In this document: positions 19,344-20,523 of the stretch, in pieces | Numbering within the stretch: position 1 is the first letter of the stretch | Layout of the letters: each line of letters opens with the position of its first letter | Origin: a candidate division WWE3 bacterium | Lineage (GTDB): Bacteria > Patescibacteriota > WWE3 > UBA101185 > UBA10185 | Assembly: GCA_052035175.1 (NCBI GenBank) | Contig: JBPOHV010000001.1 | Coordinates: 1 to 39,568 of the forward strand | Reading direction: 5' to 3' | DNA length: 39,568 bases | Position numbers and translations under genes: made by a program | The notes under the pieces: generated by a model | The model's database searches: none | Seen by the model: only the letters and a program-made list of their open reading frames with translations | What the model was told of the DNA's origin: nothing

Positions 19344-19893
19344 ATTACTTGAGCAACTAAAATTAATCTCTAAAGAACATATGGAAAAAGACAAATTTTT
19401 TCACGACTATGCGCATGCACTAGGGGTGTATTCCAATGTTGAAAAGCTACTGGAGCATGAAAACGGAAATAGACTTGCTTTACTTACCGCGGCACTTTTT
19501 CATGATATTTGTCGAGATCAAGAAGATCACGATAAGGTAGGTGCTAAACTGGCAAAAGAAATTTTAGAAGGAATTAAAGAGTTTCCAAAGGAACATTTAG
19601 ACTCAGTAATTGCACTAATCGAGAAGCACGAAGCAGGGCAGGTCACACAAGATCAAAAAATATTCTCGGATGCAGACAAAATGGAAGCATTTACACCACT
19701 TGGTTTTGCACGAGGTTTAATGATGTTTGCCGAATGGAAATATCCACTTAAAAAAGCCATTTTTACTTATGAGGAATTACTCAAAAAATGGTATAAAGGT
19801 TTTTATTTTGACGTGACTAACCACCTTGTAGAAACAAACTATTCGGAACTTAAAAAATACATCGATGAACTAAAAAGCAGATATAATTATTGA
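19333..19893 (+). CDS. HD-domain phosphohydrolase
   Basis: HDYAH, ALFHDI, IEKHE, DADKME; overlaps the upstream gene by 11 bp. Confidence 0.88.
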   Translation: MENELLEQLKLISKEHMEKDKFFHDYAHALGVYSNVEKLLEHENGNRLALLTAALFHDICRDQEDHDKVGAKLAKEILEGIKEFPKEHLDSVIALIEKHEAGQVTQDQKIFSDADKMEAFTPLGFARGLMMFAEWKYPLKKAIFTYEELLKKWYKGFYFDVTNHLVETNYSELKKYIDELKSRYNY

Positions 19894-19943
19894 TTTTTCC
19901 ATATTCCACTAAGTGTAAGAAATCCATAGAAGATTTAAGTATA

Positions 19944-20019
19944 TGGTGGACCTGAGGGGAATCGAACCCCTGCTCTCTACAATGCGAATGTAGCGCTTTA
20001 CCAACTAAGCTACAGGCCC
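19944..20019 (-). tRNA. tRNA-Ala(CGC)
   Basis: 76-nt cloverleaf, G3:U70 pair, arm CTACA-TTCGCAT-TGTAG, A73, CCA. Confidence 0.97.
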
Positions 20020-20143
20020 AAACTGCATACTTTACGCGCTCGCCTGGTGGCTAACGCACTTTACCAACTAAGCTACAGGCCCATGAAATGGGTAATGTAA
20101 GAGGAAGCGCAGCTGCGAAGCAGGAACAAGCTCTTACAGGCCC
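20020..20143 (-). repeat. Two partial copies of the tRNA-Ala 5' end with hairpin inserts
   Basis: 25-bp copy at 20059-20083 equals 19996-20020; 9-bp copy at 20135-20143; inverted repeat TGTAAGAG/CTCTTACA at 20096-20103 and 20131-20138. Confidence 0.85.
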
Positions 20144-20204
20144 TGACCAAACGATTTTATCATTTTTTTATAAAACCCCTTCTTTTTACTGCTATAATTT
20201 ATAT

Positions 20205-20369
20205 ATGATAAAAGATAACTCTTTAAAATTCGCAGGTTTAATCAGTATAGGGTATTTGGTAATCCAAGTACTTTCAAATGATATTGATGGGCTAGATATT
20301 ATTCCAGCGCTAGTACTAGGTGCTATTGTTTATGTGCTGATGAAAAAATTAGAGCATACGAGAAGGTAA
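20205..20369 (+). CDS. Small two-TM membrane protein (54 aa)
   Basis: TGc-TATAAT 6 nt before ATG 20205; two hydrophobic helices. Confidence 0.6.
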   Translation: MIKDNSLKFAGLISIGYLVIQVLSNDIDGLDIIPALVLGAIVYVLMKKLEHTRR

Positions 20370-20375
20370 TTAAAT

Positions 20376-20492
20376 ATGCCAGTAGCAGGAGAAACACAAA
20401 ACATGAACTGCCCTAAATGCAAGGCATTAACAACACATCAGTATAACGGTAGCCATTGGATTTGCTTAGGGCCAAACCATCGCGGATCATAG
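20376..20492 (+). CDS. 38-aa zinc-ribbon-like microprotein
   Basis: MPVAGETQNMNCPKCKALTTHQYNGSHWICLGPNHRGS; AGAAGG upstream; below the ORF-track cutoff. Confidence 0.45.
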   Translation: MPVAGETQNMNCPKCKALTTHQYNGSHWICLGPNHRGS

Positions 20493-20523
20493 TTTCATTG
20501 CACGAAACAAACAATTAACGTGT

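Follow-up and report, generated by a model that had tools for sequence, protein, structure and literature searches.

A short hairpin module in front of the tRNA-Ala(CGC) gene of a candidate division WWE3 genome belongs to a family of modules that lie beside duplicated ends of tRNA and protein genes, and it has a paralogous copy in front of a second tRNA-Ala gene of the same genome. The stretch analyzed here (the window) comprises 39,568 nt, i.e., positions 1 to 39,568 of contig JBPOHV010000001.1 (assembly GCA_052035175.1; its source genome is designated G000). In the window, the intact tRNA-Ala(CGC) gene is preceded by two units that each begin with the 5′ end of the tRNA. We conclude that the outer one, unit 1, is probably a copy of a small, non-autonomous, gene-end-regenerating hairpin element that spreads within and between Saccharibacteria-like genomes. 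Since the module recurs at many tRNA genes of related genomes, each time next to a duplicated gene terminus, it is best read as an insertion by which the tRNA end is regenerated.

The leader of tRNA-Ala(CGC) and its relatives

All coordinates below are window positions, on the minus strand unless stated otherwise. The sequence GGGCCTGTA, which corresponds to nt 1–9 of tRNA-Ala, occurs three times, with starts at 20143, 20082, and 20019 (spacings of 61 and 63 nt). The last copy opens the intact tRNA-Ala(CGC) gene (20019..19944, CCA encoded), which was recognized by ARAGORN and by Rfam RF00005 (72.7 bits; threshold 29 bits), while neither unit yielded a tRNA call. The repeats are separated by 52 and 38 nt that contain no integrase and no cargo. 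An extended −10 promoter-like box, TGATAAAAT (20154..20162), stands 10 nt before the outermost copy (20135..20143, found by repeat search and called T below). Because this promoter spacing is canonical, T at 20143 would represent the displaced original 5′ end of the tRNA gene. The first-pass annotation, made from the sequence alone, located the box, the outermost copy, and the tRNA start correctly, and it was also right in reporting the same spacing at tRNA-Ser(GGA) and transfer-messenger RNA (tmRNA), both of which carry TGnTAAAAT followed by a 10-nt gap. In G000, 10 nt is the commonest distance between a −10 box and a gene (8 genes), and TAWWWT ends 7–14 nt before +1 in 17 of the 49 tRNA/tmRNA genes.

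Unit 1 (20143-20083) contains the hairpin module (20096..20138), identified by repeat search and homologous to the element before tRNA-Ala(UGC) in G000 and in G003, a genome of another genus. Its outer stem is formed by TGTAAGAG (20138-20131) and CTCTTACA (20103-20096), an 8-bp inverted repeat with 100% complementarity, and its further parts are a 5′ box, GAGCTTGTTC (20133-20124; one substitution relative to the family sequence GAGCTTGCTC), a variable hairpin, CTGC-TTC-GCAG (20123-20113), and an exact 3′ box, CTGCGCTTCCTC (20112-20101). The 8-bp inverted repeat had been noticed in the first-pass annotation, but the two private minihairpins described inside it are instead parts of one conserved, irregular family hairpin of ~45 nt. 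The module stem is followed by TTACCC and CAT-TTC-ATG. Overlapping the outer stem, TACATTACCC (20090..20099) is an imperfect inverted copy of T, hereafter T′ (reverse complement GGGTAATGTA versus GGGCCTGTA), in which a 2×3 internal loop separates the pairing of TACA with TGTA from that of CCC with GGG. The mini-hairpin CAT-TTC-ATG (20082..20090) abuts the next GGG and corresponds to CAC-TTC-GTG (G000) and CGC-TTC-GCG (G003) at the UGC loci, a weak alignment of only three sequences.

Unit 2 starts with a second tRNA-Ala 5′ copy (nt 1–27; 20056..20082), for which the repeat search matched 28 nt with one mismatch; this mismatch, C24 to T, yields TGGTAAAGT at 20066-20058. It continues with a hairpin, GCG-TTA-GCC-ACCA-GGC-GAG-CGC (GCGTTAGCCACCAGGCGAGCGC; 20036..20057), and with GTAAAGT (20029..20035), a direct repeat of the D-loop copy that holds the −10-like hexamer TAAAGT and is followed by ATGCAGTTT and the intact tRNA. 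On the (+) strand, this repeat reads ACTTTAC (7 bp) at 20029-20035 and 20058-20064. The acceptor/D-arm copy, the GCC-ACCA-GGC hairpin, and the direct repeat were thus all present, as first annotated.

So far as contigs can show, the locus is no assembly artefact, a possibility that the earlier annotation had raised for the repeats. Logan contigs of run X1 tile 19700-20025, 19996-20083, and 20054-20500 with zero differences; X1 may be the source sample, so it does not count as independent evidence. In run X2, from another study, one contig spans 20097-20374, and 20024-20096 lies outside the X2 contigs. No metagenome contig matched a 51-nt stretch of the tRNA, and the single metagenome match to a 20-nt stretch of the unit-2 hairpin fell inside a protein-coding gene of an unrelated contig and was dismissed as chance.

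By blastn-short, neither unit had further full-length copies in G000. The module family came to light through a search of relatives and a listing of tRNA upstream regions. When 301 nt of the locus were compared with 41 related genomes, the leader part matched two places only, i.e., the second tRNA-Ala locus of G000 (80%) and the equivalent site in G003 (78%). The aligned segment (20143-20050) runs directly before and into tRNA-Ala(UGC), which is followed in both genomes by 23S rRNA, and the alignment of the three Ala sequences starts at GGGCyTG, passes the hairpin, and extends to the tRNA. Among the tRNA-Ala(UGC) loci inspected, the module is found only in G000 and G003. An additional copy in G003, with a repeated boxA-like CGCTCTTTGAA on its flanks, separates the tRNA from the 23S gene. 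The tRNA-Ala(CGC) and tRNA-Ala(UGC) genes of G000 share 21 identical 5′ nucleotides. Over the whole gene, tRNA-Ala(CGC) shows 82–90% identity to tRNA-Ala(CGC) of related genomes versus 84% to the UGC gene of its own genome; being closer to the CGC genes of other genomes, it implies that the element joined an existing CGC gene and that the gene was not copied along.

Two other identities for unit 1 were considered and rejected: a vestigial tRNA-Ile of the rRNA spacer, since its interior is the module and is not tRNA-like, and boxB/boxA antitermination signals, since the boxA-like CGCTCTTTGAA is located elsewhere in the G003 locus (L022). At this locus and at its G000 counterpart (L021; G000:C14:829236-829700), the 23S rRNA that follows tRNA-Ala(UGC) has its own TTGACA-17-TATTAT promoter, tRNA-Ile(GAU) lies ~1.6 kb away on the other strand, and a leader motif, CCAATACGGAATGGGA, and GAAGCTCTGRATTC recur across many genomes of the bacterial family.

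The module family and duplicated gene ends

The family core consists of GAGCTTGCTC, a variable and mostly compensated hairpin, and CTGCGCTTCCTC, within an outer stem NNNGAG/CTCNNN. With one substitution in the 5′ box, an exact 3′ box, a hairpin, and an 8-bp outer stem, the window copy falls within this definition. A strict pattern (GAGCTT-N18-34-GCRYTTCCTCNTA), which the window copy escapes because its gap is 17 nt, gave 39 matches in 20 of the 86 genomes and 9 of the 51 genera of the bacterial family, compared with 0 for the reversed control. In a phylum-wide sample, it matched 3 of 8 genomes of the family and 1 of 293 outside it, the latter looking like chance. An exact two-box scan of 185,579 species genomes returned 43 loci, of which 26 belong to records titled Saccharibacteria, Saccharimonadales, or Patescibacteria. 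Six further true-looking copies come from metagenome-assembled genomes (MAGs) bearing the label ‘uncultured Gammaproteobacteria’, as titled only; proteins at these loci show 27–52% identity to those of G000, similar figures being obtained for the other Patescibacteria-titled loci (26–45%). The remaining 11 loci, from GC-rich genomes of other phyla, have neither outer stem nor hairpin; we took them for chance coding matches and excluded them before copy collection, folding, and the T/T′ counts. A limited search of the open-access literature found no description of the element. Rfam 15 likewise gave no match in 20020-20162 at gathering thresholds and none on the module in six loci at E values up to 1; no Rfam family covers the module at any of these places.

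Both boxes are nearly invariant among the 51 distinct copies collected. In 33 copies (A type), they enclose a hairpin of unrelated but compensated sequence, and in the remaining copies (B type), a conserved, non-hairpin CTCAYTTCRTTCG-like stretch. RNAalifold folded the 33 A copies into one continuous irregular hairpin (GAG/CUC, 3×3 loop, GC/GC, bulge, variable stem), with the consensus fold reaching at least 5 more pairs outward into the flanks. The base adjoining GAG/CUC covaries (A-T 19, T-A 9, C-G 6) and is mismatched in 16 of 51 copies. A-type modules are followed by T′, the inverted copy of the preceding flank. Across 25 distinct targets, T and T′ paired at 5.24 of 8 ungapped positions, against 3.90 in 2000 permutations (sd 0.24; max 4.74). 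Locus L133 was left out of this test only and was kept among the 53 copies of the fold set, in its non-hairpin 20.

Next to the modules, gene ends occur twice. A tRNA lies within 265 nt of 27 of 32 distinct copies, and in 26 of the 32, the 7–25 nt that precede the module are repeated farther on, where the intact gene begins (repeat of at least 7 nt). The layout is T, module, T′, a short spacer or mini-hairpin, and then the intact gene beginning with T; in the window, GGGCCTGTA likewise stands before the module and again at 20082 and 20019. Where the module is on the same strand as the tRNA (Pro, Ala, Leu, Thr, Val, Gly), it is the tRNA 5′ end that is repeated, with the junction after nt 9 or, for tRNA-Leu, in the D-loop. 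Where it is on the opposite strand (Ala, Glu, Phe, Gly, Lys), the repeated segment is the 3′ end with its CCA, in reverse complement, and the junction falls in the T-loop. In a third arrangement, the module shares the strand of an intact tRNA and follows it, with an inverted T-arm piece on one side and a direct 3′-end copy on the other. The search of other tRNA loci for the same hairpins that the first-pass annotation had proposed thus yields copies at tRNA-Ala(UGC), tRNA-Pro(UGG), and many tRNAs of relatives. Its description of the duplications as a mirror image of the usual 3′-end duplications holds at tRNA 5′ ends, but the family also occupies tRNA 3′ ends and the 5′ ends of protein genes.

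Direct repeats of tRNA ends and blocks from the T-loop to the 3′ end are the classic signature of integrase-borne elements, according to passages of PMC9897764, and the duplications could accordingly be attL/attR scars of larger integrase-borne islands that entered the tRNA gene and have since lost nearly all of their DNA, a history in which one gene-end copy would also look imported, as it does at the yebC-like genes described below. We regard this as very unlikely: the repeats enclose only 52–130 nt, without integrase or cargo, at all sites inspected; a single module serves at least 10 different targets, unlike site-specific integrases; and viral contigs contained no exact module match.

The same layout was found at the 5′ ends of protein genes, namely, yebC-like genes (L092, L093, and L105) and genes for GAPDH (L118) and DnaK (L130), and at L110 the module stands just before an rpsN-like gene. 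At these genes, the repeat begins with the ATG, as it should if only the conserved coding part were alike in a native and an imported end. At L093 and L105, both gene-end copies encode MSGHSKWATI, with Ser specified by TCA in the upstream copy and by AGT or AGC in the working gene. That the peptide is kept although all three bases of the Ser codon differ would hardly be expected of copying in place followed by decay, and it suggests that one copy was imported from another lineage together with the element. We discarded complementary DNA (cDNA) run-off at transcript ends as a source of the repeats: T of the protein genes starts at the ATG, which is not a likely transcription start, and the upstream copy at L130 has its own AGGAGG. 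As a separate observation, a short upstream frame that starts from the duplicated ATG at L093 and L118 runs without a stop through the module and either ends 9 nt before the real start (L093) or overlaps it (L118), which hints at translational coupling.

The serine codons also bear on an origin in place, in which hairpin-provoked slippage or template switching would copy the gene end and the module would spread by gene conversion between similar tRNAs. Several features fit such a process: the repeat length is variable (7–25 nt), T′ lies beside a hairpin as in quasi-palindrome template switching, isoacceptors that share a 5′ end share the module (Ala-UGC and Ala-CGC; Pro-UGG, with a 13-nt remnant at Pro-GGG), and no transposase was found among the clustered ORFs of the module flanks, Y1 transposases being present in only 2 of 5 element-bearing genomes checked. 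Nevertheless, we consider it unlikely, as conversion between paralogues cannot explain why the same 22 conserved nucleotides appear at unrelated targets (tRNA 5′ ends, T-loops, yebC, gap, and dnaK) and in distant MAGs, and the replacement of TCA by AGT or AGC with the peptide kept is unlike copying in place.

Duplicated 5′ ends are a wider feature of G000 tRNAs. An exact copy of a tRNA's own first 7 nt is present within 200 nt upstream in 6 of 48 tRNAs (Ala-CGC, Pro-GGG, Gln-CUG, Gly-GCC, Gly-UCC, and Asn-GUU), whereas 500 permutations of the tRNA/flank assignment gave a mean of 0.44 and a maximum of 3; near-copies precede Ala-UGC and Pro-UGG. Pro-UGG has a full module and Pro-GGG only CGGGGTA plus GAAGAGCTTGCTC. 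The copies at Gln-CUG and Asn-GUU (G000:C14:219615-219669 and 871972-872075) are broken by other GC-rich hairpins, CCTGCCTGCGCAGGCAGG and CTGGCTAAAGCCAG, respectively, and at Gly-GCC, TGATAAAAT again stands 10 nt before the outermost copy. In a genome of another family (G037; L005), GGGCCTGTAG occurs ~105 nt before tRNA-Ala(CGC) and is followed by GC-rich hairpins.

The Gly leaders of G000 contain both acceptor strands, and unit 2 retains tRNA nt 1–27 together with CCACCA, a possible 3′-end remnant, as would be expected if the units were decayed tandem tRNA-Ala copies, i.e., internally deleted pseudogenes. We give this origin very little credence. For unit 1 it is contradicted by an interior that is not tRNA-like, since the module occurs at non-tRNA genes and is conserved between genera at the UGC locus.

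Proposed movement and expression, and consequences

The existence of the family, its location at gene ends, its T/T′ architecture, and the paralogous copy are direct observations; the mobility of the element, the order of events, and the mechanism are inferred. Several signs point to movement. Tandem arrays of two or three units precede tRNA-Pro (L063 and L067); in genome G076, identical variable hairpins stand at different tRNAs with flanks that follow each target; and the spread among genera is patchy. The contigs of public runs are informative on alleles as well. In runs X7 and X8, from two further studies, the tRNA and unit 2 are present at 95–99% with a different downstream flank. Contig cover of these two runs stops at 20083 except for one 78-nt contig of X7, in which 20139 is joined to 20072, as in an allele that lacks unit 1. 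If this joint is real, unit 1 entered the outer copy of unit 2, which would then be the older event. Of the alleles with different numbers of units that the first-pass annotation anticipated, this weak contig is the only instance, and no clean empty-site allele was seen in these contigs.

According to the preferred reading, the element would lodge in the first or last nucleotides of conserved genes, and the gene would stay intact as T is present twice. At tRNA-Ala(CGC), unit 2 may have arisen in an earlier event of the same general kind, as a 27-nt partial 5′ copy with its own GC-rich hairpin. The module would then have entered after nt 9 of the outer copy, leaving the promoter and nt 1–9 upstream. 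It most likely derived from its sister in front of tRNA-Ala(UGC) of the 23S operon, a tRNA with an identical 5′ end. We favor a mechanism in which a gene-end segment carried by the element would recombine with the host gene, with an enzyme provided in trans. The idea of successive small-hairpin insertions that regenerate the tRNA, already put forward in the first-pass annotation, thus agrees for unit 1 with the recurrence of the module beside duplicated gene ends, but it extends to unit 2 by analogy only, because the unit-2 hairpin has no other copy in G000.

Several results weigh against this interpretation, and most concern the mobilizing enzyme. Among the open reading frames (ORFs) within 1.5 kb of modules at ~60 loci (flanks only, without a Pfam scan), we found only clusters of syntenic neighbors, and these flanks contained no autonomous insertion sequence (IS) with the same terminal repeats. 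A Y1 transposase (PF01797) is present in 2 of 5 element-bearing genomes (G000 and G065) and was not found in G076 (7 copies), G015 (4), or G094 (3); moreover, the Y1 gene of G000 is flanked by a different palindrome and not by the module. Reverse transcriptases (RVT_1) occur in 12 of 20 genomes with the element and in 23 of 66 without it, a mild association at most, as kin are not independent. Tyrosine recombinases (Phage_integrase) were detected in all 5 of 5 element-bearing genomes, but they are near-universal. The repeats vary in length (7–25 nt) with the distance to the gene end, whereas a transposase with a fixed stagger would give a constant length. The window copy itself is off consensus, with GTTC instead of GCTC and a short hairpin, and its T′ pairs with T at 4 of 8 ungapped positions (family mean 5.24). 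The unit-2 hairpin had no second copy in G000 by blastn-short (11–13-nt matches elsewhere), the predicted fold of the 209-nt precursor is about as stable as those of shuffles (z −0.21), and the module had no exact match in 2.9 million viral contigs. Lastly, the X7 joint skips 66 rather than 61 nt and is weak (depth 2.6; side 30; min_likeness 88), so that it does not amount to a clean empty-site allele. Since no convincing mobilizing enzyme emerged, we commit ourselves only to a trans-mobilized, gene-end-regenerating hairpin element.

The palindrome beside the Y1 gene is a separate matter. Eleven copies of the 19-nt, palindrome-like GACCWGGTCNGACCWGGTC occur at G000:C14:831020-831512 and nine other places on C14, and none in the window. 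Two of them flank a Y1 (HUH) transposase-like ORF (831056-831388) beside tRNA-Ile(GAU), and others lie just before the promoters of tRNA-Leu-UAA, Leu-UAG, Trp, and Gly-GCC. This combination looks like a pair of a repetitive extragenic palindrome (REP) and a REP-associated tyrosine transposase (RAYT). Two 19-nt palindromes are also contained in a cluster at G000:C14:650048-650898, in which ARAGORN reported a pair of tRNA-like genes, 72 and 71 nt long, without assigning a type to them, together with a tRNA-Ile(UAU)-like gene that begins with TAGGGATG.

The canonical promoter-like box is now 124 nt from the 5′ end of mature tRNA-Ala. The tRNA need not depend on this distant box, because unit 2 holds −10-like boxes of its own: TGGTAAAGT, the product of C24 to T, sits 38 nt before the tRNA +1, and TAAAGT of the GTAAAGT repeat ends 9 nt before it, the usual distance in G000. 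A second promoter may therefore lie inside unit 2, judging by these hexamers. A sigma-70 two-hexamer scan of the minus strand (19700-20500) gave no match; as it requires a −35 box, it misses extended −10 boxes. A candidate RNase P RNA (G000:C14:142522-142913, minus strand) fits the bacterial type A model over its full length (85.6 bits, E 6e−27, below the 100-bit gathering score), which would allow removal of a long leader. Two routes to the tRNA are conceivable: a precursor with a 124-nt leader trimmed by RNase P, or transcription from a new −10 box within unit 2. In such a leader, the decoy RNase P substrates suggested in the first-pass annotation may be present. Divergent from the tRNA promoter, positions 20205-20369 on the (+) strand contain a small, 54-aa ORF (MIKDNSLKFAGLISIGYLV...) whose product has a hydrophobic core. 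A 93-aa ORF listed from 20088 overlaps the leader units, and its first part is probably not real.

Such leaders raise the question of whether the module with T and T′ could be a cis-acting RNA device, in which T′ would pair with the decoy T, leaving the module at the tip, or with the true gene start and so control RNase P processing or translation of highly expressed genes, or provide an RNase III entry site. In its favor, conserved internal loops go together with a compensated apex, T′ complements the gene start, the module is found in leaders of an rRNA operon, tRNAs, dnaK, gap, and yebC, and the mini-hairpin abutting +1 covaries in the three Ala copies. We nonetheless judge a device of this kind to be quite unlikely: 3′-type copies follow their tRNAs and are often on the other strand, a position in which a switch of this sort would be pointless; the module is absent from most orthologous genes of the bacterial family, as illustrated by the restriction to two genomes at the tRNA-Ala(UGC) loci; tandem arrays exist; and the module has no Rfam family and the precursor fold no unusual stability.

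A more specific version of the mobile-element reading, which we put forward as doubtful, is that the module and T′ constitute a new class of miniature guide-bearing mobile element, in which T′ would choose the site by pairing with 7–25 nt of the gene end. The conserved hairpin would serve as a handle for a trans-acting enzyme, and the element would carry or template the replacement gene end. Were this true, the element would live in essential tRNA, rRNA-operon, and housekeeping genes without killing its host, and the complementarity between T′ and its target would make the choice of site predictable. If the element is mobile at all, it exemplifies selfish DNA that persists in reduced genomes of roughly 1 Mb, inside the most conserved genes while restoring them, and that alters the promoter-to-gene distances and precursor leaders of tRNAs and an rRNA operon. 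Partial tRNA ends and tandem units can also cause errors when tRNAs are annotated or promoters called in Saccharibacteria-like MAGs.

Relation to known systems

Integrase-borne elements in tRNA genes leave attL/attR duplications, as stated in passages of PMC9897764 (citing Williams 2002 and Reiter 1989). So far as those passages describe them, such sites resemble the loci reported here in that a terminal segment is present twice while the gene remains whole, in the blocks that run from the T-loop to the 3′ end, and in that one copy can be foreign. The module differs in having only ~50–130 nt between the repeats, no integrase or cargo, and an inverted T′. Furthermore, it uses 5′ ends as often as 3′ ends and occupies the 5′ ends of protein genes too.

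Integron attC sites and CTX-phi attP(+) are folded single-strand recombination sites. The likeness is one of shape only: the hairpin is imperfect, some of its unpaired positions are conserved, and its apex varies in sequence more than in structure. In contrast to attC, the module targets many different gene ends and its boxes are conserved in sequence; no integron integrase or attI context was seen, although no search was aimed at one. In group II introns, through exon- and intron-binding sites (EBS-IBS), and in IS200/IS605, through guide and target sequences, a segment of the element pairs with the host target. The module shares with them only complementarity, in that T′ matches the host sequence just 5′ of the insertion point. 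It is ~10 times smaller than a group II intron and lacks intron boundary motifs, and its target is duplicated, whereas neither system duplicates its target.

Miniature inverted-repeat transposable elements (MITEs) and REP/REPIN sequences (Correia, ERIC, RPE, and REPIN-RAYT) are short, multi-copy, hairpin-forming, non-autonomous, and patchily distributed among relatives. The module resembles them in size, copy number, hairpins, non-autonomy, and patchy distribution. Unlike a MITE, it has no fixed-length target-site duplication and, in the flanks searched, no parent IS bearing matching ends, and unlike REPIN-RAYT, it occurs in genomes where no Y1 (HUH) transposase was found (3 of 5 element-bearing genomes). 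What sets the module apart from both MITEs and REPINs is its strict preference for gene termini, together with the regeneration of the gene end.

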